Source: Leptolyngbyaceae cyanobacterium (GTDB lineage Bacteria > Cyanobacteriota > Cyanobacteriia > Phormidesmidales > Phormidesmidaceae). From it: 48,000 nt of DNA. The DNA is taken from the NCBI GenBank assembly GCA_050043465.1, contig JBHJIL010000054.1, positions 53,601 through 101,600 on the forward strand. Reading direction: 5' to 3'. A program made the position numbers and the translations under genes. Numbering within the stretch: the stretch's first letter is position 1; every line of letters starts with the position of its first letter. Positions 1 to 17,532 of this stretch are shown here, one piece after another. A model generated the notes under the pieces. It made no database searches. It was not told where the DNA came from and saw nothing but the letters and a program-made list of their open reading frames with translations.

Positions 1-1882
1 TAGTATGGGTGACCTCACTGCCATCCAAATCAGGCCGCTGCAGGGCATAAAACGGTCGCTCGGTTCCTAGCAGATGGGAAAATCTTGCCCAGGTGAGCGC
101 GTCCGCCGACCCCCCATGGAAAAATAACGGTAGCTTCGTCCCACTGGTCTGAATCGGCACCAGGCTCGACCATTGAGAAACCGGCTGCTCCTGACTGAGC
201 AACGCCGCAAACTGTCGCACGTTAGGGGCTTGAAATAATGTTGCCAGCGGTAGAGCACAGTCCAACTGCTGCTGCATCTGATTAAATAGCTGCACCGCCA
301 GCAGCGAATTCCCCCCCATCTCAAAAAAGTTATCGTCTACGCTGAGGGGGCTTACCCCCAACACCGATTCCCAAATCTGGATCAGCTTTAGCTCCAACGG
401 ATTATTCGGGGCAGAGAAACTGTCCTCTAGCTGGTCTCGACTAAGATTAACTGTAATATCGTCAACAGATGCTTGAGAACGCTGAACAACCGTCAACGCC
501 TTGGGGGGCAAAACCTCACCGATGGACCGTTTTGGATTCTCTACGATTGCCGTTAATACCGTTTGAAACTGCTGCAACAGAGTCATTAGCACATCATCAT
601 TCACAGTCTCCGCCAGCAGCAGCACCGTCAGCTCATTCCCCGGTTTAACAACCACCGTCAGACCGTAGGTACTCACCAAACCTGAGCGCATATTCTCCAC
701 CTGCAGACTCCGCTCCGCCTGATACTCAGTCTGAATGGGATAGTTTTCAATCACCAAAAGACTCTCAAACAAACGTCCCGCAACTCCACTCCAGCCCTGA
801 ATCTGATCGGTGGAGGCATAGGCATAGCGGCTAGCCATCGCCTGCTGAGTTTGCAATTCCTGCAACCAGTCCAGCACCGTCTGTTCTGAGAGCACCTTGA
901 CTCGGACTGGCACCACGTTGATCAGCATGCCAACAATGACTTCAACACCTGCTAAGTCTCCCTGGCGTCCAGAAACGGTAGTGCCAAAGACGATGTCTGG
1001 ATTTTGGCTGTAGCCGTGGAGGATCAGTGCCCAGATCCCTTGCATGAATGTATTGAGGGTGAGGCGGTGCGATCGCAAAAACTCCTGCACCCCGGCCATC
1101 ACCTCACTCGAAAACGTAATACAAGGCTCCATTTCAAAGCCCCCAGCATTGGGGGTTTGGGGGCCTGAATAACCAGACACCTCTACACCAACCCCCTCCC
1201 TCCCCGAGGGCTGAGCGAAGTCGTTCGCGAAGCGTTTCCTACGGAAATAGCCCGGCAACCCCACCGGATCCCCAATCCCCCTCAACTCCTCTCGCCAAAA
1301 CTCCTCCGCAGCCGCCCCATCCTGCTGCTTCAACCACCGCACATAGCTCTGATACGTAGGCCCAGCCTTACCCACCGGACGCTCAGCCCGCCGCAAAACC
1401 TCATAACAATCAAACACCTGATTAAACACCAGCGCCCCAGACCAGCCATCCAACATCAAATGATGACAGCTCCACACCAGCTCATACTCCGTCTCATCCA
1501 GACGCATCAGCGCCAGACGAGATATGGGAGCCTGGGTCAGCTCAAACCCACGTCCTCGATCCGCCGCCAGAAAATCTGCCAAAGCCGTCTGCTGATCGTC
1601 TTGTCCCCTCAAATCCAGATGTGTCCAGGGGATAGCGGCCCGTTTTGCCACCACCTGCAACGGCTGCTTTACCCCTTGCCAATGCACCGAAGTGCGCAAA
1701 ACAGGGTGCTGACCCACCACATAGTCCCAAGCCTGTTGCAACAGACCAGCATCCACATCCCCCCGCAGCGTACAGCGCATGTGAATCAACCCATCCTGCA
1801 CAGATGTTTGAAGACTATGCCATAAAAACGCCTGCTGCAGAGGAGCCAGGGCATAGATAGTTTCGATGTTCTTCTTATCCAT
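1..1882 (-). CDS. NRPS terminal module C-T-TE with no adenylation domain; the 3' end (TE domain) runs off the window
   Basis: My translation of the minus strand from ATG 1882..1880 stays open to nt 1. It is absent from the ORF track because it has no stop inside the window. It starts MDKKNIETIYALAPLQQAFLWH and carries the C-domain motif SCHHLMLDGWS. About 450 aa later comes a carrier domain (VDDNFFEMGGNSLLAVQL, nt ~270-340), followed by LPLFFHGGSADALTW (start of a thioesterase-like fold). No AMP-binding motifs lie between C and T. The start sits 2 nt after the upstream stop (TAACCATG). Confidence 0.85.
   Translation of the reverse strand, partial: MDKKNIETIYALAPLQQAFLWHSLQTSVQDGLIHMRCTLRGDVDAGLLQQAWDYVVGQHPVLRTSVHWQGVKQPLQVVAKRAAIPWTHLDLRGQDDQQTALADFLAADRGRGFELTQAPISRLALMRLDETEYELVWSCHHLMLDGWSGALVFNQVFDCYEVLRRAERPVGKAGPTYQSYVRWLKQQDGAAAEEFWREELRGIGDPVGLPGYFRRKRFANDFAQPSGREGVGVEVSGYSGPQTPNAGGFEMEPCITFSSEVMAGVQEFLRSHRLTLNTFMQGIWALILHGYSQNPDIVFGTTVSGRQGDLAGVEVIVGMLINVVPVRVKVLSEQTVLDWLQELQTQQAMASRYAYASTDQIQGWSGVAGRLFESLLVIENYPIQTEYQAERSLQVENMRSGLVSTYGLTVVVKPGNELTVLLLAETVNDDVLMTLLQQFQTVLTAIVENPKRSIGEVLPPKALTVVQRSQASVDDITVNLSRDQLEDSFSAPNNPLELKLIQIWESVLGVSPLSVDDNFFEMGGNSLLAVQLFNQMQQQLDCALPLATLFQAPNVRQFAALLSQEQPVSQWSSLVPIQTSGTKLPLFFHGGSADALTWARFSHLLGTERPFYALQRPDLDGSEVTHT
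1134..1163. repeat. 30-nt G/C hairpin repeat, copy A, inside the C-domain CDS
   Basis: tcaaagcccccagCattgggggtttggggg matches 28305-28334 at 29 of 30 positions. The stem is cccccag/ctggggg-like. It is translated in frame as PQTPNAGGF. Confidence 0.8.
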
Positions 1883-1884
1883 GG

Positions 1885-4134
1885 TTAAACCTCCTCCAGC
1901 TGGCTAATAAAATCGTCTAGATCAGCTTGGCCCAAATCAGCATCGGGAAAATCTGATGGGGTAAAGCCACCGCTGTTGTCAGTACATTGGGCAATGAGAG
2001 ATTTCAGCGCACTCAAGTATTGATTTGCCAGTGTGGACAGGGTTTCTGAACGATGAATTTGGGTGTCATATCGCCAGTTTATCCGTAGCTGATCCTGCGC
2101 TATCCAAGCATTTATCTCTAGTGGGTAACTCCGTCGATTGCGTGAATCTCTCAAGGTACCAACATCGATGTCTGGAATAACTCTTAGGTCTCCGGTGGTC
2201 AAATCCTGTCGTCCAAGATAGTTAAACAACACTTCCGATGATTCTGCCTGAGACAGCTGCTGTCGGGTTGCATCCTCCCCCAGATATCGCAGCATACCGT
2301 AGCCAATTCCTCGGTTTGGCACCTGTCGCAGCTGTTCTTTAACAGATTTGAGGGTCGCGATAGAGTCGTCAGCATTGTCAACGTGTAAACTCACCGGATA
2401 GGTGGTCGTAAACCATCCCACTGTCCGAGACAGGTCAATGCCATCAGCAATCTGTTCTCGCCCGTGGGCCTCCATTTCTATGCGAACATTGCCAGCAGTG
2501 GTGCCTGACCATTGCAACAGCGTTTGGGTCAATGCTGTCAGCAGTGCATCGTTAATTTGGGTGTTGTAAACCGCTGGAACAGTTTTTAATAATGCCTCAG
2601 TATCCTCAGCGCTGAGGGTAACCGTCACGCTCTGGGTTGTGCCTTCCGTGGGTGGCGGTGTGTCTGAAAAATCACGCGGTAGCGCCATAGCTAGTTGCTC
2701 AGATTGAGCTATCCAGAAATCTAATTCAGACTCCCTTGTAGGCGTTTGAGAATTGAGAGTTTTGGCCCAAGTCTGGAAAGATGTGGTCTTCTCAGGCAGC
2801 TGTGGAGTCTCCCTTAATAAGCTGGAGAGATCATCGAGAAGAATCTGCCAGGAAACAGCGTCTACAATCAAGTGATGCAAACTTAGCAAAAGCCAGCTTG
2901 ACTGACCAGCCCCACGGGTGAATAGAATCGCTCCCATCAGATCCCCGTCAGCAAGGTTTACATTGGCATGCAAACGACTGCCATGGTCAGCAATAGCTTT
3001 TATCTGTTCAGATACTTCTAGATGGGAAAGATCAACTTGAATTACCTTGGGAGGACTGCCAGCATCGGCATTAATTTGTTGATCGTTGAGAAAGCGCATT
3101 CTTAGACCATCGTGGTGGGTCCACAAAATTGCCAGGGTTCTTTCTATTAAGGAATGCACACTTGAATAATCTACCGTTTCAATCGGCTCGACGATATCTG
3201 GTTCCCCTTTGCAAGGGGAACCGTCAGGGAGGGGTTCTCGGGATATAGCGCTATTGGTCGAAACCCCACCGCCTGCGGCACCTCCCCTAAGCCCTCTGGA
3301 CTGGCCTCGCCAACGCAAGGGGAGGACTTTTGCAGACATATTTTCTGACTGGGGGATTGTTTCTGGGTAATCACCTAATTTGTCAACCCCATCAGGAAGC
3401 TCTATCAGCATCGCCTGATGCCAGTGGTTGGGCACCTCCATTTCCTGTTCAAAGAACCAGTGCTGAATCGGTGTTAGCGGCACTTCTCCAGTCACTAAAT
3501 CCTGAGTGGCGGTTACTTCAGGTGCTAGATTTACCGCTGCCGCCAGCTCTGCCACCGTTGGATGCTCAAACAGTTGATTAGGTGCTAACCGCAGCCCCGC
3601 CTCCCGCGCCCGCGAAACAATTTGAATACTGAGGATAGAATCTCCCCCTAGCTCAAAAAAGTTGTCGTGGATGCCAACGGTGTCTAGCCGCAGTACCTCA
3701 CTCCAGATTTGAGCTAAAACTTGTTCTGCTGGTGTGCGGGGCGCAGCGGATGCACCCGTCATTGTCCCCACTAACTGGGGCTCAGGCAATGCCTTCGTAT
3801 CAATCTTGCCATTGGCAGTGCGGGGCATTTGGGCTAACGGCATAATCACCGCAGGCACCATATAATTTGGTAGCTTAGCCTTCAGCCGATCTCTCAGAGC
3901 ACTAACCTTCTTATCATCCGCCTTACCATCAGCCGACACCACATAGGCCACTAGCCGAGCAGAACGATTGGACGCAGCCAGGTTTAGCCGCTGTGCCAGG
4001 GCCTCACGCTGTTTGGGTGAGAACGCTTTAACTCGTTGATATAGTTCCTGGTTGGGTGCCATGACAAAATTCTGTGGACTAGTTCTTAGGGGTCTGAAGC
4101 GGAGGGACAGATTGTATTGATCATGGTGGCCCAA
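1885..4134 (-). CDS. NRPS protein made of an A-domain C-terminal subdomain (A9-A10 only), T and E domains
   Basis: The 749-aa ORF contains ARLVAYVVS...LPNYMVPAVIMPLAQMPRTANGKIDTKALP (A9/A10). The T domain is DNFFELGGDSILSIQI. E-domain motifs are PLTPIQHWFFE, HHLIVDAVSW, EAHGRE and TVGWFT. The track start is TTG 4134; ATG 4062 (MAPNQELYQRV...) is an equally plausible start. Motifs A1-A8 are absent. Confidence 0.85.
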   Translation of the reverse strand: MGHHDQYNLSLRFRPLRTSPQNFVMAPNQELYQRVKAFSPKQREALAQRLNLAASNRSARLVAYVVSADGKADDKKVSALRDRLKAKLPNYMVPAVIMPLAQMPRTANGKIDTKALPEPQLVGTMTGASAAPRTPAEQVLAQIWSEVLRLDTVGIHDNFFELGGDSILSIQIVSRAREAGLRLAPNQLFEHPTVAELAAAVNLAPEVTATQDLVTGEVPLTPIQHWFFEQEMEVPNHWHQAMLIELPDGVDKLGDYPETIPQSENMSAKVLPLRWRGQSRGLRGGAAGGGVSTNSAISREPLPDGSPCKGEPDIVEPIETVDYSSVHSLIERTLAILWTHHDGLRMRFLNDQQINADAGSPPKVIQVDLSHLEVSEQIKAIADHGSRLHANVNLADGDLMGAILFTRGAGQSSWLLLSLHHLIVDAVSWQILLDDLSSLLRETPQLPEKTTSFQTWAKTLNSQTPTRESELDFWIAQSEQLAMALPRDFSDTPPPTEGTTQSVTVTLSAEDTEALLKTVPAVYNTQINDALLTALTQTLLQWSGTTAGNVRIEMEAHGREQIADGIDLSRTVGWFTTTYPVSLHVDNADDSIATLKSVKEQLRQVPNRGIGYGMLRYLGEDATRQQLSQAESSEVLFNYLGRQDLTTGDLRVIPDIDVGTLRDSRNRRSYPLEINAWIAQDQLRINWRYDTQIHRSETLSTLANQYLSALKSLIAQCTDNSGGFTPSDFPDADLGQADLDDFISQLEEV
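3203..3349. mobile_element. MITE-like hairpin repeat inserted in frame in the E-domain coding sequence (extra coding block ~3175-3381)
   Basis: By eye it is ~75-80% identical to the reverse complement of intergenic 24089-24210. Shared blocks are tcccctttgcaagggga / tcccccttgtgaaggggga, ggtcgaaaccccaccgcctgcggcacctcccct / ggtcgagacccctctgcctacggcatctcccct, and aaggggaggacttttgcagacatattttctg / aaggggaggatttttgtagacactttttctg. It adds ~69 aa (LGDYPETIPQSENMSAKVLPLRWRGQSRGLRGGAAGGGVSTNSAISREPLPDGSPCKGEPDIVEPIET) that the paralogous E domain in the 1828-aa NRPS lacks. Confidence 0.7.
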
Positions 4135-5485
4135 TAGCTGCTAAGTGGGGATTGTCTTTCTGGGCAGACTGTCTATTTAGCAATGTTTCAACCACTTGGG
4201 CAGCGCGATTTTCTTGGTGGTAGTGGTGGATGCGATCGCACATCTTCCCCACCCTCTCCCGATAAGACTCATCAGCCAGCAACGTCTGAATAGAGCTACA
4301 GATCTCAGCCGCCGTCTCCTTCTCCCGCTCGCCCGCAATCCCTAACCCGTGATAAGCCACCCTGGCCGCATCGCCATTTTGGTCCGCATGTCCGAGGGAA
4401 TACACCAGCATTGGCACCCCCAGGTAAAGACATTCGTTAATGGTGTTAATGCCGCCATTGATGACAGCGCAGTCAGCGTGCTTGAGCACCTGTAACTGTG
4501 GCGTCCAACTAAAAGTATGGACATTGGCAGGCAGGGTTCCAAGCTGGTCAATCTCTAGCTGTCCGCCCAATCCCATAACCAAATCCCATTCAGGTCGGTT
4601 AGCAACAGCTTCCATAATCTTTTTTAACCAATGCTGGTTGCCTTTAGCAAAAGTGCTGCAACCGCAGTATATAAGCGATCGCCCCTGGGTAAGTCGCTTT
4701 TCAAAAAGCTGTTCTAAGACTTTGTGAGTATCTGTCGTAACCTGCGCCTCTTGGCGATTCTCATACACCATCGGTCCCACATAGTGCATCAAAGGATGGG
4801 GATCATGGGGAAAATCTAACTCCAGGGCATTAAAACAAAGGATGGGTAGCGTCCCCTGTCCATAGGGAATTAGCCATTGATTAAAGCCAAACTGTTCGGG
4901 AAACGGATAGCCAATCTGCCGAGCATAACAGCCCCAAACCGACCGTCTGTCCAGCCCCATCCGCTGCCAACGCTGTTTGAGCGCTTCTTTCCAAGTAGTC
5001 AAGCCGTTCTTCAGCCAAGCTAACTCAATGCCAAAGTCGCTATCCGGTAGAGTATGACTATTAATAGGAGGCAACCCAGGTCGTTTCCAGATGGACAGAA
5101 ACTGACATAGCAGCGCCATTGGCAGACCGCTCATTACCCCAGCCATAATGTGAGGCGTCATCTCCATATCGATTAGCACCAAATCCGGCTCAAGCGCTTG
5201 TATGGTTTGGGCAAAGCGATGCACACCCAGCTGATTCACTGCTTGCTGTTGTCGTTGCCGCAATGTCCACAGTTTTTTCCATCGCCCCATGGGTGGGTCA
5301 ACGGGCTGAATCACCCATGACTCTAGCTGAACATAGGGAATTCCCTGGGCCGTAACCGCATCTCGAAAGTCATAGGGACTGGCATAGGTCACCCGATGGC
5401 CAGCCAGCTTCAACTGTTGCACCAGTGCCAGACTGGCGTTAAAAATGCCTTTTAATCCTCCTGTGATACAAACAATGTGGGACAT
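4121..5485 (-). CDS. GT1-family (macrolide/UDP-glycosyltransferase-like) glycosyltransferase
   Basis: The N-terminus is MSHIVCITGGLKGIFNASLALVQQLKLAGHRV. The C-terminal nucleotide-sugar motif is VINGGINTINECLYLGVPMLVYSLGHADQNGDAARV. I prefer ATG 5485, which sits 2 nt after the methyltransferase stop (TAGCCATG), over the track start 5596, which would overlap the upstream gene by 109 nt. Confidence 0.8.
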   Translation of the reverse strand: MSHIVCITGGLKGIFNASLALVQQLKLAGHRVTYASPYDFRDAVTAQGIPYVQLESWVIQPVDPPMGRWKKLWTLRQRQQQAVNQLGVHRFAQTIQALEPDLVLIDMEMTPHIMAGVMSGLPMALLCQFLSIWKRPGLPPINSHTLPDSDFGIELAWLKNGLTTWKEALKQRWQRMGLDRRSVWGCYARQIGYPFPEQFGFNQWLIPYGQGTLPILCFNALELDFPHDPHPLMHYVGPMVYENRQEAQVTTDTHKVLEQLFEKRLTQGRSLIYCGCSTFAKGNQHWLKKIMEAVANRPEWDLVMGLGGQLEIDQLGTLPANVHTFSWTPQLQVLKHADCAVINGGINTINECLYLGVPMLVYSLGHADQNGDAARVAYHGLGIAGEREKETAAEICSSIQTLLADESYRERVGKMCDRIHHYHQENRAAQVVETLLNRQSAQKDNPHLAAIGPP

Positions 5486-5487
5486 GG

Positions 5488-6237
5488 CTAAGAGTCCCCC
5501 GTGCCAGAGTATGTGGAGTCTTTTGTAGGATCTTTTTGCGCAATCACACACAGATCCTCGAGGGGCATATTGTGGGTAAATGGGATGGAGGCCCAAGGGT
5601 CTAGCACATCTAACCGTCTGATATTTTTGAACCTGTTGACCTTTCGCAGCTGGTAGGTCAGTCCTTCGTAGTCATAGCTCCACTTGTGTACCTGTCCCGG
5701 ATCGTCAACAGGAGCATAGCCAAATTGATGGGCATGGAATGAAAACAGAAAGCTGGAGGGGGCATCCTTAGGGATTCTACGCTGAGCATAGTTAACGAAA
5801 TATCCCATGTGACGATAGTTAGTGAAATATCCGTTGATGTGGATGCGCAGGTCTGGAACCGTGAGCAATAAGTAGCCATCTTCTTTTAAAAGACTAGAAC
5901 AAAATTTCAACAGGTCTGTTCCGTCCTCAAAGCTAAAATGCTCAAACACATGCTGCAGTCTGACCAAGTCAAACTGCCCTAATTTCTCTCGGTCAGCATC
6001 TCCCAACTGGCCTATATTGGCTGAATAGTAGCGCTCAGCTAGATCCGGAGCCAGGTCCTCCCCTGAGGCTAGATCAAGACACATAAAGCCTTCTTCAAAT
6101 CGCCGACTGCCCATGTCCAGCCAACGGGTACGTCCTTCGCTGAGCAACTTCTTTTTTAGACCATTGCGCTCAATTCCCAGCTTTTTGAGAGCTCTGGCAA
6201 CGTTGTACTTAAGCCATGGTAGGTTTGCCATCATCAC
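5488..6237 (-). CDS. Class I SAM-dependent methyltransferase (stand-alone)
   Basis: Motifs are RWLDMGS (motif I-like), FDLVRLQHVFEHF and LKEDGYLLLTVPD. The start region reads GTG-ATG-ATG with GAGG upstream. A 55-nt spacer follows the upstream NRPS stop. Confidence 0.7.
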   Translation of the reverse strand: MMMANLPWLKYNVARALKKLGIERNGLKKKLLSEGRTRWLDMGSRRFEEGFMCLDLASGEDLAPDLAERYYSANIGQLGDADREKLGQFDLVRLQHVFEHFSFEDGTDLLKFCSSLLKEDGYLLLTVPDLRIHINGYFTNYRHMGYFVNYAQRRIPKDAPSSFLFSFHAHQFGYAPVDDPGQVHKWSYDYEGLTYQLRKVNRFKNIRRLDVLDPWASIPFTHNMPLEDLCVIAQKDPTKDSTYSGTGDS

Positions 6238-6292
6238 CTCGCCCCCTTACAGTCGTTATAAAATTTCAGTTGAACACGACAGACAGCCATCG

Positions 6293-9031
6293 TTAAACAG
6301 TCTCCTCGATAGCCATTAACAAAGCTTCTGCCTGCTCAGGCTCTAAAGCTGCGAGGGCCGCCACTAGGCTATCTAGCTCGAATGCTGGCTGAGCCACTAC
6401 CACTGCCTCTTGCACACCCTCCTGTTCCCGCAGGGCATCCTCAATCTCCCCGAGTTCAATGCGATGACCCCGAATTTTAACCTGGCGATCGCAACGCCCT
6501 AACCATTCCAACAGACCATCAGCCCGATAACGCGCCAAGTCTCCTGTCTTATAAAGGTAGGGTGAGCACTGCCCACCATCCTCCGGCACAATAAACACCG
6601 CTGCCGTCTTCTCCGGCTGATTCAAATACCCCCGCGTCACCCCATCTCCACCCACATAGATCTCACCAACAGCTCCAGTTGGAACCAGCTGTAGATCCTC
6701 ATTTAGCAAGTAAATCTGAGTATTCGGAATCGCTCTACCAATAGCAACAGGCCCAGGCCTCAGCTCCGTCGGAACTCGGTAAGCCGTACACCACACCGTT
6801 GTCTCCGTCGGTCCATACTCGTTATACAAATCCGTAGCAGGCAGTTTGGCATAGTGTTGCTGTGCCAAACTACGAGGACAAGCTTCCCCCGCAACAACAA
6901 CCGTCCGCAGTGTTGATAACTGCTGAAGATTAGTAGACTCTAGCAGCAACGAATACAGTGTAGGAACACACAGCGTATGGGTAACTTTCTGCTGAGCAAT
7001 CAGGCTAGCCAGCTGATGCAGATCCTGTTCAATCCGCTCAGGAGGCAACACCAATGTTCCACCCTGACACAGCGTCCAGAAAATTCCAGCCACAGAGCTA
7101 TCAAAGGCAATGGAAGAGAGCAACAAGAATCGGCCAACCGGTTCTGGATAAACCTGAAATCTCGCCATCGTAGAATGCACCAAATTACGATGGCTGACCA
7201 TCACCCCCTTAGGCTGTCCTGTGGAACCAGAGGTGTAAATAATGTAGGCCAGATCGTCCGGTTGAGCAGGAGATACAGAAGACTCTAGAGACGGCTCTTC
7301 TGCATACTTCTCATCTAAATAAACGAGAGGAACAGACATTTCAGGTAAATTGACCGATCGCTGCGTCAACAACAGCTTTGGATTAGTATCCTCTAAACAG
7401 TAACTAATCCGAGCTGCAGGATAGGCAGGATCGAGGGGAACATAGGCAGCGCCAGCCTTAAACACCGCCAGAATACTCACAATGCGCTCCAACGATGGAT
7501 TCAGACACAGAGCTACCCGTTCACCAGGAACAACGCCGTGCGATCGCAACACACCAGCCAACCGTTCAGCCCACTGATTTAGCTCGCCATAGGTCAGCGT
7601 TTGCCCTTGAAACACCACCGCCGGAGCATCGGGTGTCTTATCCACCTGAGCTTCAATCAGCTGGTGAATAGTGAGATCATGGGGATAATCGATGCTATCC
7701 CAGATAGTTAACTGCTGTTGTTCTGCCGCTGTCAGTCGAGGTAGGTCAGTTAGTTTTGCCTGGGGTTGCTCAACAAAGGCCGTTAGCAACAGTTCGAGGT
7801 GGGCATGCAGGCGAGTAATTGTCTCCGCTTCAAATCGCCCTGAGTCAGACAGTAATATTAACTCTAGAGACTCGCCCGGCACCACTAAGAGAGCTAAGGG
7901 ATAGTTACTCTGCTCCAGGTAGCGAATCTCGTGGGTCTCAAATCCTAGATCAGTCGCCACCGCTGTTGGATAGTTTTCAAACACCACAATGCTCTCAAAC
8001 AGAGGACTGCCCTTAGGCAAATCACTCCAGCGTTGGATATCGGTCAGGGCTGTGGACTCATACTGTCGCAGTTCCAGAAGCTGTCGCTGTCGGTCCTGCA
8101 GCCAATCCACCAGAGGTTGCTCAGAGGCTATGTCTACCCGTACAGGCAACGTATTAATAAACAATCCCACCATGGTTTCCACACCGCTGAGGTCCGCCGG
8201 GCGCCCTGAAACCACTGACCCATAGGTCACCTGATTTTGACTACTGTAGTGGTTTAGCAACAGCGCCCATGCCCCCTGAACCAAGGTGTTTAACGTTAGC
8301 TGATGCTTCTGACCCAAGGTTTTTAAGGCTGTGGTTAAAGAGGGAGAGAGAGATTTAGATTGTTGCTGATAGTGCCCGGAACTGCCAATTTGGGCAGCGG
8401 GCAGCGGGGTGGGTTCTGCAAAGCCTTTTAGTTGATTGCGCCAGAAGGATTCGGCGGTGCTGAGATTTTGTTCTTGCTGCCAGGCGATGTAGTCGCGGTA
8501 GGGACGTATGGGAGATAACTGAGGAACGATACCTTGCTGCAGCGCTCCATAGTAAGTGAGCATGTCTTGCCAGATCAGGGGCAGCGACCAGCCATCAAAT
8601 AATAGATGGTGAGAACTCCAAATGAATTGCCAGGTGTCTTTGCTGAGGTGGATCAGGGTGAGGCGGAGAATGGGGGCTTGATCAAGGTTAAAGCCTTGGT
8701 TGCGATCGCACCCCAAAAACTCCTCTAGTTTAACCTTCTGTTCACCCTCATCCAAGCCACGCCAGTCCAGTAACCGCCAGGGCAGCTCCACCTGTTGCCG
8801 CACTACCTGCAACGGCTCGTCTAAGCCATCCCACAAAAATGCCGTGCGTAGAACCAGATGCCGTGCCAGAGTCTTCTGCCATGCCTGCTGTAACAGTTCC
8901 GACTGCAGGCGACCGCTAAGCTTACAGGTATATTGGTTCACATAAACCCCAGCTTGGGTATCTGCCAGGGTATGAAACAACATACCCAGCTGTGTGGGCG
9001 AAAGCGTATAAATATCAGCAACGTTTTCCAT
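6293..9031 (-). CDS. NRPS C-A protein whose A domain ends just after motif A8 (no A9/A10, no T)
   Basis: The C domain has MENVADIYTLSPTQLGMLFH and SSHHLLFDGWS. A-domain motifs are LTYGELN, AGAAYVPLDP, YIIYTSGSTGQPKGV, FDSS, NEYGPTE, GEIYVGGDGVTRGY, YKTGDLARY and GRCDRQVKIRGHRIELGEIE. It then reads ...VQEAVVVAQPAFELDSLVAALAALEPEQAEALLMAIEETV-stop (TAA 6295..6293). Confidence 0.9.
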   Translation of the reverse strand: MENVADIYTLSPTQLGMLFHTLADTQAGVYVNQYTCKLSGRLQSELLQQAWQKTLARHLVLRTAFLWDGLDEPLQVVRQQVELPWRLLDWRGLDEGEQKVKLEEFLGCDRNQGFNLDQAPILRLTLIHLSKDTWQFIWSSHHLLFDGWSLPLIWQDMLTYYGALQQGIVPQLSPIRPYRDYIAWQQEQNLSTAESFWRNQLKGFAEPTPLPAAQIGSSGHYQQQSKSLSPSLTTALKTLGQKHQLTLNTLVQGAWALLLNHYSSQNQVTYGSVVSGRPADLSGVETMVGLFINTLPVRVDIASEQPLVDWLQDRQRQLLELRQYESTALTDIQRWSDLPKGSPLFESIVVFENYPTAVATDLGFETHEIRYLEQSNYPLALLVVPGESLELILLSDSGRFEAETITRLHAHLELLLTAFVEQPQAKLTDLPRLTAAEQQQLTIWDSIDYPHDLTIHQLIEAQVDKTPDAPAVVFQGQTLTYGELNQWAERLAGVLRSHGVVPGERVALCLNPSLERIVSILAVFKAGAAYVPLDPAYPAARISYCLEDTNPKLLLTQRSVNLPEMSVPLVYLDEKYAEEPSLESSVSPAQPDDLAYIIYTSGSTGQPKGVMVSHRNLVHSTMARFQVYPEPVGRFLLLSSIAFDSSVAGIFWTLCQGGTLVLPPERIEQDLHQLASLIAQQKVTHTLCVPTLYSLLLESTNLQQLSTLRTVVVAGEACPRSLAQQHYAKLPATDLYNEYGPTETTVWCTAYRVPTELRPGPVAIGRAIPNTQIYLLNEDLQLVPTGAVGEIYVGGDGVTRGYLNQPEKTAAVFIVPEDGGQCSPYLYKTGDLARYRADGLLEWLGRCDRQVKIRGHRIELGEIEDALREQEGVQEAVVVAQPAFELDSLVAALAALEPEQAEALLMAIEETV

Positions 9032-12000
9032 TAGCCCTTACCTCCCATGCGATCGGCTTTATTGAGCAAGGCCGCTAGCTTATCGAGTTTCTTGCTGTTG
9101 AGCTTGGCCAATGGAAAGTCTTCTACAGTTGTCTGATCGCCTGGTCCTTCTAGCAGGGTTTGCAGGTGTAGCATCATGCCATCGGCCAGTGCCTGCACCG
9201 TGGCCTCATCTAGACCGCTGTAGCTCCAGTCAATGTGGAGGTGGCCATTGCTGATAAAGGCACCGATTTCTAGGGGATGCGACCTTATCTGTAGCGGACT
9301 GCGCGACACTTGTAACGGCTGGGCAAACCGAAACATCGACGTAGGCGGCAATAGCTGTTCTAAAGTACCAAGATAGTTAAACAAAATCTCAGGCTGGCTG
9401 TGCTCGGCGATAGTCTCTCCTTTGAGATAGCGTAAAATACCATAGCCAATACCATTATTAGGAACCTGCTGCAGTGTGTGTTTTACTGCTCGCAAAGCCT
9501 CATTGGGAACAGTATCCACCTCAAATGTGACTGGAAAGAGAGAGGTAAACCACCCAACGGTGCGCACCAGCCGACGATTGGGCACCATCGCCTCTTCGCG
9601 TCCATGGCCCTCTAACGCCACCTGAACAGTGTGCTGTCCAGTATGCTGCTTGACCGCTAAGGCCAATGCCGTTAACAACAGTTCCTGGGGGCGGGCACGG
9701 GTTGCTTGCAAAAATGTCTGGGTTAACTCGTAACTCAGCTGTCGAGAAAGTGTGGACGCACTGGCCTCAGTTTGAGCTTCAACACCAAATTGCACTAAAG
9801 CCTTAGCCTGAGACCGCCAGTAGTCAATTTCTGACTGAGAAAGCGATACCTCATTAAGGCCGTCAGCCCATGCCTTAAACGAACTGGTTTTGAGGGGTAA
9901 GGAAAGGGACTCTTGCTGACTTAGTTGTTGATACGCCGTTTCCAAATCTTGAATCAGCGTTAGCCAGGAAAGTGCATCCACGACTAAATGATGAATCACC
10001 AAACCTAGCTGCTGCCGATCGCCCAAATTAAACAAGGCTGCCCTAACCAAATCTCCTGTTGCCAGGTCAAGCTGGGTTTGCAAACCGGCAATAGTGTCAG
10101 TAATTATTTGCTGTGACCGAGCGGACGCATCCACCTGCACCAAGGTGACATTAGTAATAGGGGCACCATAGTACTGTTGCCAGCCGGTCTTTGTTTGGGT
10201 ATAGGTCAGGCGCAAACTATCGTGATGGTTTACCAGAGCAATTAAAGCAGCTTGTAAAACTGAAGGTGTCAATGTCTCGGCCACATCTAACACCACCGTC
10301 TGGGTAAACTGTTCTGGCTGTGGTGAGCGCTGTTCGAAAAATGCTTGTTGAATCGGGGTGAGGGGGACTGTACCGGTCAAATCTTCTGGCGCTAATTCCA
10401 CATCGGGTGCCACCACCACCGACAGCTGTGCCAGGGTAGGATGCTGAAAAATCTGGTTGGGGGACAGGTTAAAGCCAGTCTCCGATATGCGAGCCGCAAT
10501 CTGGATGGCCATAATCGAGTCGCCGCCCAGCTCATAGAAGTTGTCGTGAATGCCGATGCGGTCCACCTTAAGCACCTGCTGCCACAGCTTCGCCAAGGTT
10601 TTCTCCACAGCCGTTTGGGGAGCAACAAAGGCAGACTGCAGTTCTGGACGAGTCTCTTGGGGATCGGGCAGAGCAGCAAAATCAACTTTGCCGTTGGCGG
10701 TCAGCGGCATCTGCTCCAGCTGCATAAAATAGGCGGGCACTAGATTGCCGGGCAGTCGCTGAGTTAGAAAGGTTCTCAAATCCGTTAGCGAGACAGTTCC
10801 GACATAGTAGGCTGCCAGCTGGGCTTTGTTAATTTGCTGGTCCTCGTAGCCAATTTCGCGCAAAATTCTCTCCACCTCAGCCACATCAATCTCATCATTG
10901 AGTTCATCAATGGCAGCTTCTGGGGTTTTATGGCCCATGCGCACATCCCAGCTGTAGGGTAAGGCATAGTTGTGGTAACCCCGCTTTTTGGTGTGCAGGT
11001 GAATACCGACATTGTTGATCAAGCAGTTGGTGGAACGGCCCGTATCCGATGGGCGAATCCAGGGCACCTGCTCCGTCAGAAAGCTGAGCATCTCCGCCAG
11101 CTCTACATCGCAATAGCGATAAAAATCCAGAATTTCGACTTTTTCAAAAATGTCGTCAGTTTTAAAGATATCCACATCCATCAGTCGCGACACAGCATCA
11201 TCAGCGCGGTGATAGGCTTTACGGGCATCTAAAATGGTCTCGTCAATCTTGTTAACGTCAAACTCATCTTGACCAAACAACTCAGTAAACCATTCTTCCG
11301 TCAGGCGGGTTTCAAAAAACTGGCCCCGTGAAAGACCGGTGACAATGCAGGGAATCCCCATCCCATAGGCCAGCTGCATACTCAAGGTGTAGATTGTCTT
11401 AAAGCAGCCGTTGCACACATTACAGTGGCGATTCAAACTGTCGACAAAAATGTCGTTCATCGCCGGGGTAGTGCCAAACTGATGATCCACACCCAGGGTG
11501 CTGACCACACGACGAATGTTGTCCTTCGCTTCTTCCGAGATGTAGCCGTTATCCAGGGTAAAGGCAATCACTTTAAAGCCCATGGGCACCAGCTGGGCCA
11601 GGGCATAGGTACTGTCCTTACCACCGCTAAGCAGCATCATGCAGTCATAGTCACCCTGCTTACGCTGTCGGGCGTTGTCTAAACGAGACTTGAATTCGTC
11701 GATGGATTTGAAATATTGTTCGGTGCGATCGCAATAGGTCTCATAGGTCTGACAAATATCGCACACCCCATCGTGGTCAAAGGTGATGCCAGGGTAGTTG
11801 GAGGCGATCCCGCAACGAGTACAGTAAGTAACCGGGCCGGTCTGTGGGGGAGCCGTCGCCTGAATTAGATTGACAGCGCTGGCACTTACCTCAGGATGAG
11901 CTACCAGCGCCGCTTCAATTTCTCCTAGCTCAATGCGAGTCCCGTGGATTTTCACCTGTCGGTCTCCGCGACCCAGATAGGTGAGCTGACCGTTTTCCTG

Positions 12001-14517
12001 CCAGCGACCCAAATCGCCTGTGCGATAGAGCCTTTGATCACCGCGATAAACAAATCGTTCTGCCGTTAGCTCCGGGCGGTTGAGATAGCCCCGCGCTAGC
12101 CCCGGACCACCAATAAAAATTTCACCCACCGATCCTTGAGGCACCAGGTTGAGATGCTCATCCAAGAGATAAATCTCGGCCCCTGCCGCTGGTTGACCAA
12201 TGGAAACAGACGTAGGGGCATCAGGCTCAAGTTTAAATCGGTGAATCATGCAGCCAACGGTGGCTTCCGTGGGACCATATTCGTTATAAATTTCAATGGG
12301 ATGGTCGCTGGCATTTGCGATCGCACCCGCCAATGATGTCTTTAGATCTTCCCCACCTAAAATCAGGGTTTTCACCCGAGAACCCAGGGCCATTCCCTGT
12401 ACCAGGGCCAGGTGAGAGGGGGTCAGCTTAATCACATCCACTACATTTTCTTCAAAAATGCGCTGTAGTGAGAGATCGATTGCTCCACTTTCTTCTGGAT
12501 AGATAACAACCTGTCCACCAGACAGAAGCGGCACATAGATAGAGGTGACCGTGAGATCAAAGGTAAACGGAGAGAACAGAGGAAAAGCTAGCGTTCTACC
12601 TCGCACATAGTGATGAATGGCCCAATGCACATAGTTTGCTAAACTCCGATGTTCGACCTCCACACCTTTTGGCTGACCAGTGGACCCCGATGTATAGAGC
12701 ACGTAGGCCAGCTGATTGATGGTCGACGGAGCATCTGGATTGCTATCTGACTGCGCGGTTAAATCTAGCCGATCAAGCAGCACAATCTTAGTCGCACCCT
12801 TCAAACAGTCGGCGACCGCTGAATGGGTCAACACCCAACGGGTCTGGGTATCGTTCACAATGTGGGCAATGCGCTCCCCAGGATGACTGGGATCAATGGG
12901 CACGTAGGCCCCACCTGCCTTGAGCACCCCCCAAATCGCCACTAACATCTCAATAGAACGGCGTAGACAGATGCCGACAGGGGTTTCAGTCGTTACCCCC
13001 TGCTGGCGGAGATAGTGGGCCAGTTGATTTGCCTTAGCGTTAAGTTGCCGATAGGTGAGGGTTTCGCTTTTGCATACGATCGCAACAGCGCTCGGTGTCC
13101 GCTGCACCTGGACCTCAAACTGTTGTACGACAGTCTCACTAACGACGAAATTGGCATTAGCTTCTTCACCCTGCGCCAACGCCATCAAGTGAGAACGCTC
13201 TGCTTCCGGAATAATATCCACCGTCGCAATCGGCTGGTCAAGATCGGCTAATACCGCATCCACCAGGGCTAAAAAATGCCCCGGAGCCCGTTCCTGTAGC
13301 TCTGGCTCAAACAGATCACAGTTAAAATCAAAATGTAGCTGTAGGCTACCTCGATCATCAAAGTCATGCACCTGCAGTCGCAAATGGTGACGCGGATCGC
13401 CCGCCCCAGGATGAATCCATTCTGAATGGACAGCATGACCATTAAAGCCTGACAGTTTAGCGTGGATAAAATTTAAGACCACATTGACATCACGGCTAGG
13501 GGCAAACTGGCTTGCACCGGGTTGGGCGTAGCGCAACAGACTCCCGCTGGCCTGATTTACTTTATGCAACAGCGAAGTAAATGTTTCTCCCAATTCAATG
13601 TCCACCTGCAATGGAAACAGTTCGATAAAGACACCAATTGTTTCCTTTAAAATCGCTGTAGGGCGACCATGGGCCGGGGTGGTGAATGCCACTTGATGGC
13701 GACCGCTAATGCGATGGAGGTAAACCAACAGAATACCGGCCACCAAGTTAAATAGAGACAGCTGGGGTGTCAATGCCTGGGCTGCCGAGGTCGTTGCCAA
13801 CTGCTTCAGTGCGGCCGTTCTGGCTGGACCTAGCTCGCATGAAACGCGGCGAGTACGAGAAGAGACTTGATTGGCCGAGCGCTGGTAAAGCTCAACTGAG
13901 TTGGCCTGCTGTTGCTGCCAGTAGTTAATCGTCCGTGATGAGGGTGATGGTAACGAAATATCACTGTATGCGGGTAACGCCGGAGCATCTGACAACGTAC
14001 CGGCAATCGAACGCTGATAGAAGTCTCCCAGAATCTGATAAATTAGCTGAACCGACTGAATATCCGTAATCAGATGGTGCTGATTTATATACCAGGCATA
14101 GCAGTCGGCACTTAGACGAATCAGGGCAGTGTCAAAAAGTCTTTCGGATAAATTAAACAGGGTTTGGCTACGATTCTCTGCCCAAGACCTGGCCGCTGAT
14201 GAGGGATTCTCTTGATCGCTAAAATCGAGTATTGGTACCTCACAGTCCATGGCACGCAATATCCGCCGCTGGGGCACACCGTCCACTTCTTCAATCACCA
14301 TGCGTAGCGTATCACTACGCTTCACCAAAATCTGAAATGCTGCCTGAAAATGGACAGGCTCAATCTCACCCGATAGCGTGAACAAAAACGCCATATTGTA
14401 CAGTGGCGAGTCCGATGCCAGCTTTTGCCCTAGCCATAACAGGTGCTGTGCCGTGGTCAGATTAGACTGGGCCGCTAAATTGTCAGGAGATTGAGTTGGC
14501 GATGCAGCAACGGTCAT
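9031..14517 (-). CDS. NRPS C-A(interrupted by PP-loop domain)-T-E, 1828 aa
   Basis: The C domain carries HHLITD (nt 14079..14062). A-domain motifs are LTYRQLN, AGGAYVPIDP, YVLYTSGSTGQPKGV, FDLT, NEYGPTE, GEIFIGGPGLARGY, YRTGDLGRW, GRGDRQVKIHGTRIELGEIE, then (after the insert) LVPAYFM and NGKVD. The T domain is DNFYELGGDSIMAIQI (nt ~10500-10526). E-domain motifs are PLTPIQQAFFE, HHLVVDALSW, EGHGRE and TVGWFT. Its stop overlaps the next start (TAATG at 9029-9033). Confidence 0.9.
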   Translation of the reverse strand: MTVAASPTQSPDNLAAQSNLTTAQHLLWLGQKLASDSPLYNMAFLFTLSGEIEPVHFQAAFQILVKRSDTLRMVIEEVDGVPQRRILRAMDCEVPILDFSDQENPSSAARSWAENRSQTLFNLSERLFDTALIRLSADCYAWYINQHHLITDIQSVQLIYQILGDFYQRSIAGTLSDAPALPAYSDISLPSPSSRTINYWQQQQANSVELYQRSANQVSSRTRRVSCELGPARTAALKQLATTSAAQALTPQLSLFNLVAGILLVYLHRISGRHQVAFTTPAHGRPTAILKETIGVFIELFPLQVDIELGETFTSLLHKVNQASGSLLRYAQPGASQFAPSRDVNVVLNFIHAKLSGFNGHAVHSEWIHPGAGDPRHHLRLQVHDFDDRGSLQLHFDFNCDLFEPELQERAPGHFLALVDAVLADLDQPIATVDIIPEAERSHLMALAQGEEANANFVVSETVVQQFEVQVQRTPSAVAIVCKSETLTYRQLNAKANQLAHYLRQQGVTTETPVGICLRRSIEMLVAIWGVLKAGGAYVPIDPSHPGERIAHIVNDTQTRWVLTHSAVADCLKGATKIVLLDRLDLTAQSDSNPDAPSTINQLAYVLYTSGSTGQPKGVEVEHRSLANYVHWAIHHYVRGRTLAFPLFSPFTFDLTVTSIYVPLLSGGQVVIYPEESGAIDLSLQRIFEENVVDVIKLTPSHLALVQGMALGSRVKTLILGGEDLKTSLAGAIANASDHPIEIYNEYGPTEATVGCMIHRFKLEPDAPTSVSIGQPAAGAEIYLLDEHLNLVPQGSVGEIFIGGPGLARGYLNRPELTAERFVYRGDQRLYRTGDLGRWQENGQLTYLGRGDRQVKIHGTRIELGEIEAALVAHPEVSASAVNLIQATAPPQTGPVTYCTRCGIASNYPGITFDHDGVCDICQTYETYCDRTEQYFKSIDEFKSRLDNARQRKQGDYDCMMLLSGGKDSTYALAQLVPMGFKVIAFTLDNGYISEEAKDNIRRVVSTLGVDHQFGTTPAMNDIFVDSLNRHCNVCNGCFKTIYTLSMQLAYGMGIPCIVTGLSRGQFFETRLTEEWFTELFGQDEFDVNKIDETILDARKAYHRADDAVSRLMDVDIFKTDDIFEKVEILDFYRYCDVELAEMLSFLTEQVPWIRPSDTGRSTNCLINNVGIHLHTKKRGYHNYALPYSWDVRMGHKTPEAAIDELNDEIDVAEVERILREIGYEDQQINKAQLAAYYVGTVSLTDLRTFLTQRLPGNLVPAYFMQLEQMPLTANGKVDFAALPDPQETRPELQSAFVAPQTAVEKTLAKLWQQVLKVDRIGIHDNFYELGGDSIMAIQIAARISETGFNLSPNQIFQHPTLAQLSVVVAPDVELAPEDLTGTVPLTPIQQAFFEQRSPQPEQFTQTVVLDVAETLTPSVLQAALIALVNHHDSLRLTYTQTKTGWQQYYGAPITNVTLVQVDASARSQQIITDTIAGLQTQLDLATGDLVRAALFNLGDRQQLGLVIHHLVVDALSWLTLIQDLETAYQQLSQQESLSLPLKTSSFKAWADGLNEVSLSQSEIDYWRSQAKALVQFGVEAQTEASASTLSRQLSYELTQTFLQATRARPQELLLTALALAVKQHTGQHTVQVALEGHGREEAMVPNRRLVRTVGWFTSLFPVTFEVDTVPNEALRAVKHTLQQVPNNGIGYGILRYLKGETIAEHSQPEILFNYLGTLEQLLPPTSMFRFAQPLQVSRSPLQIRSHPLEIGAFISNGHLHIDWSYSGLDEATVQALADGMMLHLQTLLEGPGDQTTVEDFPLAKLNSKKLDKLAALLNKADRMGGKG
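10822..11870 (-). other. Embedded Cys-ribbon + PP-loop (adenine-nucleotide alpha-hydrolase) domain inside the A domain, between A8 and A9
   Basis: Motifs in order are CTRCGIASNYPGITFDHDGVCDIC, YDCMMLLSGGKDSTYALAQL (SGGKDS at nt 11628..11611), FTLDNGYISEEAKDNIRRVVSTLGVDH, CNVCNGC and IVTGLSRGQ. The block is flanked by ...VSASAVNLIQ (after A8) and AQLAAYYVG (before A9). Confidence 0.7.
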
Positions 14518-14519
14518 GA

Positions 14520-14759
14520 TTACAGGCTCCGCTTAGCAAGATAGGCATCAATGGCCTTGATGGTTCTAAAGTTGGTGATGGTGATATCCGACTGGGGTAC
14601 ATCACAGCCAAATTTGTCTTCCACAAAGGCAACCAGCTGCATTACCCCCATGGAGTCGAGAATCTCTTCACCGAGAAGATCGTCGTCAACGTCCACCTGC
14701 ATCCGACCATTGAGCAGGGTTTGGCTAATGTACTGTTTTAAAATTTCTGGGGTGTCCAT
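14520..14759 (-). CDS. Stand-alone acyl/peptidyl carrier protein
   Basis: The protein is 79 aa with LGEEILDSMGVMQLVAFVEDKF (DSxG phosphopantetheine-site-like Ser). Its stop lies 2 nt before the NRPS start at 14517. It overlaps the upstream adenylase gene by 22 nt. Confidence 0.8.
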   Translation of the reverse strand: MDTPEILKQYISQTLLNGRMQVDVDDDLLGEEILDSMGVMQLVAFVEDKFGCDVPQSDITITNFRTIKAIDAYLAKRSL

Positions 14760-16345
14760 GCCGTTGTCTCCGCTTGTTGTTGTAATGCGTTGCGATCAAT
14801 TTTGCCGGTACCGGTTCTAGGAAAGGTGGTTGCGATCGCAATCCGTTTAGGCACCGCATAGGCTGGCAGCCGTTCTCCCACGTAGTTCAGCAGGTCCCCC
14901 TCGGTTAAGCTCGCCTCTTTAGTGAGAATCACCGCCGCCTCAACCTGGTGACTACCGGCCTCAGCGGCCACGCCATAGGCCGCCGCCTCTTCCACCTGGG
15001 GATTTCCCACCAGGGCAGCCTCCACCTCATCTAGCTCAATCCGATAGCCCCGTGCCTTAATCTGTCGGTCTTTGCGCCCCACAAACTGGTAGTTCCCATC
15101 CGGTCGCTGCTGCACCAAATCTCCTGTGCGGTAAAACACGGCGGTTTGGTGGGCAATTTCAGTACGATAAAAAGCCTGCTCGTTCAAACTAGGCCGCTGC
15201 CAATAGCCTGCCATCATAGTCGGTGTCCGCACCAAAAATTCCCCTATCTCTCCAGCAACAATGGGGTTGTCCTGATCGTCGAGCACCATCTCTTCGGCAT
15301 TGGCCCAGATGCGACCGATGGGGGCCACCTCGTCAGGCATCGCCTGGCCTGGCTCCAAGGGGGGAACATGATAATAGCTGCACTGATTGATTTCTGCAGG
15401 CCCATAGACATTGCTAAACCGGGCCTGGGGCAGTCGTTCCATCAGCCCATACATATACTTAGCCGGGTAGGGTTCTCCACCAAACAATACCCAGCGCAGT
15501 GAACTTAAATCTCTCTCGTCTAGCACTCCCCGCAACAGCAATTGAATCAACGCAAAGGGAACCGAGTACCAGATGGTAAGGGCTTCATCCTGAGCTAACT
15601 GGGAAAGACTGGCCGGTATTTTCAGATAGGCCTCGGAAATAATCACCGTTGTTGCCCCCACCAGCGGCCCTGAGAAATAATCTAGGGTGGACATGTCAAA
15701 GTGCAGTGGCGAGTGGTTACCCAGACGATCGGTATGGGTGAGACCGTAGGTGTGGGCCGCCATCCGCGCATAGTTGAGACCGCTGCGGTGGGTGTGCATA
15801 ATCCCCTTGGGGGTGCCAGTGGAGCCCGAGGTATACATGATGTAGGCCAAATCTTGTTCCATCCAAGTTACGGCTGGCGATGTATCACTGGGGGGAATAT
15901 CTGACCAGTCGCAGCGGCTGATGTCGGGCTGTTGCTCCAGAGTAAACTGCTCGGGTAAACCAATCACACAGGTCAATTCTGGGGTCGCATCCAACAGGTC
16001 CGGTAGCCGTCTCCGCTTTGATTTTTGGGTAATTAGGTGGCGGATACCGCAGTGGTTAATGGCATAGGCGGTACGGGCAATAGGCGCACCCGGATCGAGC
16101 GGTACATAGGCCGCACCGGCTTTCCAAATGCCGTAGTTTGCGATCGCACTTTCTAAACACTTACCCAGTTAAATCCCGACGCCATCTCCCCGCTTTACCT
16201 CCAGCTCCACCAGCCGCCCGGCAAATCCGTTGGCCCGACGCAATAAATCACTATAGGTCAGACCCTCCCCGTCCCAGCGAAAACCTTCACGCTCAGGAAA
16301 CCGTTCCCCGGACCGACCTAACATTTGAGACAACAAATAAATCAT
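14738..16345 (-). pseudogene. Stand-alone adenylating enzyme (DltA/type II A-domain-like) interrupted by one in-frame TAA at 16171..16169
   Basis: The track ORF (14738..15994, TTG start) lacks motifs A1/A2. Upstream in the same frame I read MIYLLSQMLGRSGERFPEREGFRWDGEGLTYSDLLRRANGFAGRLVELEVKRGDGVGI-TAA-LGKCLESAIANYGIWKAGAAYVPLDPGAP... from ATG 16345, which is preceded by AAGGAGGAG. The stop sits where GI-Y-L is expected. Downstream motifs are YIMYTSGSTGTPKGI, NVYGPAE, YRTGDLV, GRKDRQIKARGYRIELDEVE and TGTGKIDR. Confidence 0.7.
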
Positions 16346-16357
16346 CAGGTCTCCTCC

Positions 16358-17506: not shown

Positions 17507-17532
17507 TATTAGGTTTGAGGGCGCAGGAATAA

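Follow-up and report, generated by a model that had tools for sequence, protein, structure and literature searches.

A nonribosomal peptide synthetase (NRPS) operon of a Leptolyngbyaceae cyanobacterium contains an adenylation (A) domain that is divided between two genes, and our comparison of the two halves with intact A domains and with their homologues leads us to regard it as probably a naturally split A domain, functional by design. The DNA analysed, here called the window, is a stretch of 48,000 nucleotides (contig JBHJIL010000054.1, positions 53,601 to 101,600), whose first 19 kb are filled by this single operon on the minus strand. The first of the two genes, C-A(N), encodes a condensation (C) domain and A-domain motifs A1-A8; the second, A(C)-T-E, opens with the missing motifs A9 and A10 and continues into a thiolation (T) and an epimerisation-type (E) domain. 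Genes for an S-adenosylmethionine (SAM)-dependent methyltransferase (MT) and a GT1 glycosyltransferase (GT) occupy the gap between them (Table 1).

The only Pfam domains in the 912-aa C-A(N) protein are Condensation (residues 5-442) and AMP-binding (460-803); AMP-binding_C and PP-binding are both lacking, and the protein ends in ...GEIEDALREQEGVQEAVVVAQPAFELDSLVAALAALEPEQAEALLMAIEETV-TAA. The 725-aa A(C)-T-E protein (1885-4062) has AMP-binding_C (59-110), PP-binding (139-201) and Condensation (328-721), with A9/A10 at its N-terminus, directly ahead of the T domain. Its start is taken as the ATG at 4062, which is conserved among close homologues; started from the TTG at 4134, the protein would have 749 aa. 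In the DNA, A(N), MT, GT and A(C) are set apart by clean stop and start codons. An earlier note, made from the letters of the window and its open reading frames (ORFs), had described just this order, with C plus A1-A8 running into a stop codon, two complete genes, and an ORF beginning with A9/A10 ahead of T-E; Pfam and the DNA bear it out.

In keeping with that description, the halves tile an intact A domain. P0165, a contiguous C-A-T-E relative of 1542 aa with 64% identity over the C-A part, aligns through its residues 1-898 to residues 1-889 of C-A(N) and through 900-1097 to residues 33-222 of A(C)-T-E, with no gap, no overlap and no duplication. Where P0165 has an 11-residue loop (PSQLLDPLEKSQ), the window proteins have a C-terminal tail of ~32 aa on C-A(N) and an N-terminal head of ~35 aa on A(C)-T-E. 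At the break site, the loops of other contiguous relatives are ordinary ones of 8-14 residues, and no remnant of tail or head was found in them. When the first 100 aa of A(C)-T-E served as query against representative sequences, generic alignments among the best 150 matches (giant multi-module NRPSs, with scores summed over many A domains) began at about residue 30-37, and thus a normal A domain does not include the head; where alignments seemed to extend into the head, the residues concerned formed ordinary short loops.

The chain is broken within the small C-terminal subdomain (Asub), between the strands VQEAVVVA and RLVAYVV, and not at the boundary of Acore and Asub. The earlier note had correctly placed it between A8 and A9, at the site where the neighbouring A domain carries a PP-loop insert; its assignment to the junction between subdomains gives way to a position in mid-Asub. 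Both flanking strands are present (E433-440, E509-515) in an AlphaFold2 (AF2) model of the fused halves, a 1197-residue construct computed from an unpaired alignment and hence without inter-chain co-evolution signal, which superimposes on complete A domains (4D4I, TM 0.84 normalised by target). Motifs A3, A5, A7 and A8 are intact in A(N), and the A9/A10 residues P70, G85, K86 and D88 are invariant across A(C) homologues.

The same layout recurs in many relatives. With the 725-aa protein as query we found ~60 A(C)-T-E homologues of 635-700 aa, all AMP-binding_C + PP-binding + Condensation, from Leptolyngbya, Leptothoe, Adonisia, Dapis, Crocosphaera, Xenococcaceae and many metagenomes, with identities as low as 42%; the 912-aa protein gave ~75 C-A(N) homologues of 910-1030 aa with Condensation and AMP-binding only, ending in the tail. 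These split homologues come from NCBI, ENA, JGI and Logan assemblies and range from 42 to 88% identity. All C-A(N) homologues have a low-complexity linker of variable length and then the terminal motif [VI][ED]SLVxALxxLxPExAExLLxxVE; all A(C)-T-E homologues start with ELYQRVxxLSPxQRxxLAQQL, followed by a variable linker and QRLVAYVV. The split is present in the isolate genomes of Leptolyngbya sp. PCC 7375, LEGE 11480 and Dapis sp. BLCC M126. In a neighbour-joining tree (no support values) the split proteins form one large clade, with contiguous P0165 inside it beside a split member; given this nesting, the contiguous state of its lineage is probably secondary, through re-fusion or recombination. 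Relatives of both kinds envisaged in the earlier note, those split alike and a contiguous one, were found.

This distribution bears on two less favourable explanations. An assembly or frameshift artefact at 4062-6293, a case that the earlier note had raised, might be suspected from the apparent origin of the window in a metagenome-assembled genome (the identical protein P0001 is named 'MAG: ... Leptolyngbyaceae cyanobacterium'), but the recurrence of the layout in the three isolate genomes and in many assemblies, together with the clean stops and starts, reduces its probability to almost nothing. Inactivation of the module by a two-gene cassette inserted into an intact A domain, leaving a pseudogene, was another option of the earlier note, and some signs of decay in this genome's cluster speak for it. 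The adenylating gene of the starter unit has an in-frame TAA at the position of a Tyr in homologues (GDGVGI*LGKCLE vs GDRVGIYLNKSLE), the rest of the gene being in frame and 72% identical to that of L092 (LEGE 11480). The E domain contains a 222-nt in-frame insert of 74 codons (3160-3381, minus strand), absent from most (~650-aa) homologues and modelled as disordered (predicted local distance difference test, pLDDT, 20-34). A perfect hairpin within the insert, GGTTCCCCTTGCAAAGGGGAACC, is suggestive of a small mobile or repeat element; no second copy of the insert was found within the window. Nonsense codon and insert may each be real decay or sequencing error, and they do not concern the split, which is intact in isolate genomes; the genes of Leptolyngbya sp. 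PCC 7375 have neither of the two. Against inactivation stand the recurrence of this break, tail and head included, in well over 100 independent assemblies, the intact catalytic motifs of both halves, and the activity of Crz1/Crz2 of corallorazine synthetase, which are split at the same position (see below); on conservation and motifs we reject it as highly improbable. The conserved break, tail and head, the intact motifs and the Crz precedent together make the remaining proposal of that note, a natural split that reassembles through docking tails, the best supported one.

Tail and head as candidate docking elements

In the mechanism we propose, C-A(N) would provide all of the large subdomain and, of the small one, the first half (the A8 hairpin, a helix and one strand), and A(C)-T-E would provide the rest (one more strand and helix, A9, and A10 with its catalytic lysine). 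The halves would be re-joined non-covalently, the acidic helix-turn-helix tail of C-A(N) pairing with the basic helix-turn-helix head of A(C)-T-E; both would be tethered by flexible linkers of variable length and would be of the same type as the docking elements of ordinary NRPS subunits.

Tail and head have conserved cores of 28 residues between the variable linkers. The net charge of these cores is -4.45 +/- 1.55 in tails (negative in 69/69) and +2.75 +/- 1.48 in heads (positive in 57/57). Secondary structure assigned by DSSP to the AF2 fusion model gives two helices each in tail and head (H446-455, H458-469, H477-484, H488-503), and AF2 predicts the same for a 67-residue construct of tail plus head. 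The earlier note had seen similar helix-like motifs at both new termini: the helices are borne out by prediction, two to each element, while the likeness between the tail and head profiles is weak (hhalign, 20 columns, 35% identity, E 0.0011, probability 21%). Pfam searches with the tail and head peptides returned nothing meaningful.

A hidden Markov model (HMM) of the head matches the N-termini of NRPS subunits that open with a C domain and belong to unrelated loci, at independent E-values of 1e-10 to 1e-4. Unrelated NRPS loci from a contig scan on generic T-domain patterns served as a control set for this motif, and 11 of 317 same-strand junctions were matched at an independent E <0.01. The matched loci belong to Nostoc, Sphaerothrix, Microcoleus, Pelatocladus, Acaryochloris, Anaerolineae, Archangium and Pseudomonas, and at several of these junctions the upstream partner has a T domain followed by an acidic ..LxxxLxxLSxEExxxLL tail, for example DVLVAALADIEQLSEDDVQTLLVSE. 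Since its motif is also found at the N-termini of ordinary NRPS subunits, the head looks like a standard docking element. That tail and head pair with each other as docking elements also seems likely to us, with somewhat less confidence than that the split domain is functional.

Several points weigh against a working A domain re-joined in this way. AF2 confidence is low to moderate (pLDDT 47-73 for tail and head, mean 69 for a 67-aa tail+head construct), and a Foldseek search of the 67-aa model against the PDB gave no significant match. The head profile resembles the CurH docking helix in 4MYY (IKQLSPLQRAALAL) weakly, with an E-value of 0.43 that is not significant alone, and the tail profile matched no solved docking domain among PDB sequences; a canonical NRPS junction sequence, searched likewise against PDB sequences, gave no docking-domain match. 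The charges of paired tails and heads are weakly correlated (Pearson r = -0.32, p = 0.048; Spearman p = 0.10; n=39 pairs, without phylogenetic control). Where relatives have an MT fused to C-A(N), the tail is internal and not C-terminal, which is unusual for a docking domain. With the nonsense codon and the E-domain insert, the pathway may be impaired in this particular genome. Finally, what the sequences show directly is the layout of the genes, their tiling and conservation, the varied gap contents, the MT-fused relatives and the distribution of the motifs; the physical docking of tail and head, adenylation activity, the histidine substrate and the targets of tailoring are inferred from them.

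Gap genes and methyltransferase-fused relatives

The MT of the window matches Methyltransf_23 at 30.8 bits against a cut-off of 27. The GT matches UDPGT (46.5 bits, cut-off 19.5) and EryCIII-like_C (46.0 bits, cut-off 31.7), as well as the NCBIfam macrolide-family GT, where it scores 125.8 bits for the MGT subfamily, under the cut-off of 260. The GT gene starts 2 nt past the MT stop codon, and no terminator-like or promoter-like site above chance was found within the gap.

We inspected the gap in 12 distinct split loci, and all 12 have one or more tailoring genes there. The content is not fixed, as four different gene sets occur among the relatives: a Methyltransf_23-type MT with a GT1 in the window, Leptolyngbya sp. 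PCC 7375 (L001) and LEGE 11480 (L092), the last two having orthologues of the window MT at the same gap position; a GT1 with a Stf0-type sulfotransferase (ST) in Dapis sp. BLCC M126 (L003); a GT1 only in L086, L093 and L094; and a 263-aa guanidinoacetate-N-methyltransferase (GAMT)-like MT, PF27704, in L087-L091. The two MT types are unrelated by sequence. This variation suggests that the gap content has been exchanged during evolution and that the gap is a slot for tailoring genes.

Compared with the GT of the window, five of the six other gap GTs have 54-63% identity, matching the divergence of the NRPS proteins, and the sixth (L093) has 40%. The GT encoded downstream of the contiguous P0165 gene reaches only 29-35% identity, which marks it as a paralogue and not a relocated gap gene. 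The codon usage of 4121-6237, which the earlier note had proposed to compare with the flanks, is not exceptional: the MT (z = 2.6) and the GT (z = 1.8) are no more deviant than other genes of the cluster. Recent horizontal insertion of the two genes was ruled out by this ordinary codon usage, by the five GTs that track NRPS divergence and by conserved synteny.

The PF27704-type MT has homologues in more than 1200 sequence clusters, the best 120 of which are all free-standing, ~263 aa long and from several phyla. A metagenome scan with this MT gave 80 loci, 53 of them with an MT of at least 47% identity. A separate A(N) gene with the A8 motif lies directly upstream of the MT in 27 of the 53, and in a further 10 the MT is fused as C-A(N)-tail-MT; the remainder were mostly cut by contig ends or missed by the regular expressions used. 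Wherever sequence is available the MT is followed by a separate head-A(C)-T gene, and no ORF among the 53 loci runs from the MT on into A(C). In the fused proteins the tail motif is retained, placed after the A8 strand and ahead of the MT, and the head is retained in their partner proteins. Fusions with a separate head-A(C)-T gene next to them were noted in L117, L122, L124, L125, L127, L130, L131, L137 and L153.

Some of the MT-fused relatives have binding-pocket codes other than that for His (DVENxGAxx, DAADLGLIG). With codes so varied, the architecture of split plus MT is not tied to one substrate, and it appears to have spread over A domains of different specificity. Judging from these relatives, a tailoring enzyme at the A8/A9 site can be either covalently attached or free, and in the cyanobacterial branch GT and ST genes have supplemented or replaced it. 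The best reading of the family is that it descended from, or is equivalent to, an interrupted A domain, and both fission-first and fusion-first histories are compatible with it. The suggestion in the earlier note of a fissioned interrupted A domain is in this sense upheld as an evolutionary relationship, through the relatives with C-A(N)-tail-MT and head-A(C)-T proteins. That simple fission of an A-M-A domain could account for everything was ruled out by the unrelated folds in the gap and the lack of relationship between the window MT and the GAMT-like MT, and further by the free-standing state of the best 120 PF27704-type homologues. Fission or fusion with an MT was nevertheless clearly part of the family history, to judge by these architectures.

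Under the mechanism proposed above, the gap would be the insertion site of interrupted A domains turned into a gene slot for free-standing tailoring enzymes, whose most plausible substrate would be the residue loaded by the split module. It is a possibility, though less likely than not, that the slot is exchangeable in the sense that the broken chain, re-joined through portable docking helices, allows a lineage to take up a free-standing N-methyltransferase, GT or ST, which assembles with the module and modifies the T-bound residue, probably His, during chain assembly. Another arrangement is conceivable, a non-covalent interrupted A domain in which the gap enzymes are structural subunits placed between the halves, with tail and head binding the enzyme and not each other, a glue that acts on the T-bound residue. 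It draws on the filled gap of all 12 split loci, on the natural C-A(N)-tail-MT fusions as a Rosetta-stone type of argument for association, on the five gap GTs that diverge in step with the NRPS proteins, and on the different, paralogous GT that the contiguous relative has elsewhere. The tail and head motifs, however, stay constant while the fold of the gap enzyme varies (GT-B, two unrelated class I MTs, sulfotransferase), and the head motif also occurs in ordinary NRPS subunits without such an enzyme; we consider this arrangement unlikely. As tail and head are conserved across all four gap contents and their HMMs match no gap ORF, direct pairing of tail with head is likelier than bridging by a gap enzyme.

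The locus and its predicted pathway

Table 1. Features of the NRPS operon in the window (positions in the window; all on the minus strand)
Feature	Position	Strand	Remarks
Ornithine cyclodeaminase (OCD)	17533-18636	-	starter-unit gene; group spans 14520..18636
PigA/RedW-like dehydrogenase of prolyl-peptidyl carrier protein (prolyl-PCP)	16358-17506	-	starter-unit gene
Amino-acid adenylating enzyme	14738-16345	-	starter-unit gene; in-frame TAA at 16169-16171
PCP, 79 aa, LDSMG serine motif	14520-14759	-	starter-unit gene
C-A-T-E module, upstream neighbour	9031..14517	-	PP-loop amidotransferase-like insert ~10852-11829
C-A(N), 912 aa, Condensation + A1-A8	6293..9031	-	Pfam
C-A(N) C-terminal tail, 32 aa (QPAFELDSLVAALAALEPEQAEALLMAIEETV)	6296..6391	-	acidic, predicted helix-turn-helix
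Gap gene 1: class I SAM methyltransferase (MT), 249 aa	5488..6237	-	Methyltransf_23, marginal score
Gap gene 2: GT1 glycosyltransferase (GT), 454 aa	4121..5485	-	UDPGT/EryCIII-like_C, macrolide-GT-like
A(C)-T-E N-terminal head, ~35 aa (MAPNQELYQRVKAFSPKQREALAQRLNLAASNRSA)	3958..4062	-	basic, predicted helix-turn-helix
A(C): strand RLVAYVV, A9 LPNYMVP, A10 NGKID with catalytic Lys	3778..3957	-	
T domain (GGDS) + epimerisation-type domain (HHLIVDAVSW), COM-like C-terminus	1885..3777	-	
Start of next subunit, C-T-thioesterase (TE) without A domain, cut by window edge	1..1882	-	

With the pocket positions mapped by what we take to be the PheA numbering, the split domain of the window has the code DSALVAEVW; among 80 split members, 62 have DSALIAEVW and the others close variants of it. 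The same DSAL(V/I)AEVW codes occur in 25 A domains of the metagenome loci. DSALIAEVWK is listed as a code for His and beta-OH-His (PMC12283262). The split A domain is thus probably histidine-activating, an assignment that we regard as moderately secure, and it is plausibly the His residue that the gap enzymes modify.

The code also bears on whether A(N) is a remnant whose T domain is loaded in trans. The last module is C-T-TE without an A domain, and its T domain must therefore be loaded in trans, which means that trans-loading occurs somewhere in the pathway. In A(N), however, A3, A5, A7, A8 and the His-type code are strictly conserved, as are A9 and A10 in A(C); a binding-pocket code kept in this way argues that A(N) is no remnant, and we hold that explanation to be very improbable. 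Terminal subunits of the same A-less kind are also found in L001, L003 and L092, the last with a tandem pair.

The PCP gene overlaps the end of the adenylating-enzyme gene, stops 2 nt ahead of the NRPS start codon and is below the size for the default ORF list. Equivalents of 79-101 aa are present in L086, L088-L090 and L092-L094, and L091 has a weak PP-binding ORF. From these assignments the pathway would start with a pyrrole-2-carboxyl-type unit made by the OCD, the adenylating enzyme, the PCP and the PigA/RedW-like dehydrogenase. An Asn-like residue would follow, in line with the hand-derived Asn-like code DLTKIGEVG of the upstream module (9031-14517), and then D-His, the line ending on the A-less C-T-TE subunit; the predicted product would be pyrrole-2-carboxyl-D-(Asn-derived)-D-His(modified)-X. 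A literature search for the product or the cluster found nothing.

The A domain of the upstream module is itself interrupted at A8/A9, by a domain of ~330 aa (10852-11829, minus strand) with a CxxC..CxxC zinc ribbon and an SGGKDS PP-loop. This insert matches NCBIfam TIGR03573, the WbuX N-acetyl sugar amidotransferase (119 bits, E 2.6e-34, profile 2-328/344). It seems to be present in L087, L092 and L093, from faint QueC matches, and by size in L086, L088, L089 and L091; it is absent from P0138, L090 and L094. We found nothing in a literature search on an A domain interrupted by a WbuX-like domain. The insert may convert a side-chain amide to an amidine or nitrile.

A HupE/UreJ-family (Ni/Co transporter-like) gene adjoins the cluster in the window (18695-19936, minus strand) and also in L003, L086, L087 and L092; this neighbour, considered with the predicted building blocks (pyrrole-carboxyl and His), suggests a metal-binding peptide as the possible product. 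The region 24866-47533 is unrelated to the cluster and encodes a STAND NTPase-WD40 protein, two ABC exporters (one with a C39 peptidase domain), arginase- and spermidine-synthase-like proteins, a CHASE2-GGDEF-EAL protein and a TPS-CHAT protein.

Relation to known split and interrupted systems

Taken with Crz1/Crz2, the family described here marks the break in mid-Asub as a recurrent and evolutionarily stable NRPS design, in which, for the loci sampled, the slot methyltransferase is nearly always nested in a split A domain. If the exchangeable slot is real, it would amount to a non-covalent, multi-enzyme interrupted A domain, and would bring assembly-line glycosylation and sulfation within that concept. 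Contiguous A domains, fusions of A domain and MT, three-piece systems and multi-gene slots can be set out as an evolutionary series, and the origin of interrupted A domains, a long-standing question, thereby becomes testable by comparison. For engineering, the natural split site and the putative matched pair of short docking elements could be used in swapping A subdomains or modules. Genome-mining tools that expect intact A domains will mis-score such modules as truncated or inactive.

Helical docking domains include the four-helix-bundle type of trans-AT polyketide synthase (PKS) split modules (reviewed in PMC9113145) and the class 2 pair CurG/CurH (PDB 4MYY). The tail and head resemble them in having two predicted helices each, hydrophobic positions and opposite charges. 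The junctions served by known docking domains lie between whole domains or modules (ACP/KS, T/C, KS/KR), whereas the pair in the window would re-join the halves of one small subdomain; its membership of a docking class is weak by sequence, given the marginal likeness of the head to CurH and the lack of a detectable solved relative of the tail.

The closest known system is the corallorazine synthetase of Corallococcus coralloides, in which Crz1 ends in A2(A1-A8)-nMT and Crz2 is A9/A10-T-TD, and in which adenylation of Gly by Crz1 was seen only once it was mixed with Crz2 (PMC11342130). As in the window, the break comes after A8, A9/A10 open the next protein ahead of its T domain, and an MT is located at the A8/A9 site; metagenomic relatives of the window family share the two-piece layout of C-A(N)-MT followed by A(C)-T. 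The nMT of Crz1, however, is covalently attached and the two genes are adjacent, whereas A(N) in the window ends after a docking-like tail, with two free-standing genes between the halves. The window system comprises four polypeptides, has an MT of another type and a GT1 in addition, and has His as its predicted substrate in place of Gly. The corallorazine paper mentions no docking elements (PMC11342130), in contrast to the conserved tail and head of the window family.

Interrupted A domains of the a8-a9 type are known as A-M-A, A-KR-A and A-Ox-A, the review on them covering embedded M domains only (PMC8341866). They share with the window the insertion site in Asub and the placing of a tailoring function there. 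An interrupted A domain is a single polypeptide with an embedded domain, whereas in the window the chain is broken and the tailoring proteins are separate (a GT, and in relatives a sulfotransferase). To our knowledge, neither GTs nor STs have been reported as A-domain interruptions. The window family is set apart from both Crz1/Crz2 and the interrupted A domains by its free-standing exchangeable genes, GT and ST among them, by its conserved tail and head and by its very large size; it nonetheless belongs together with these two systems.

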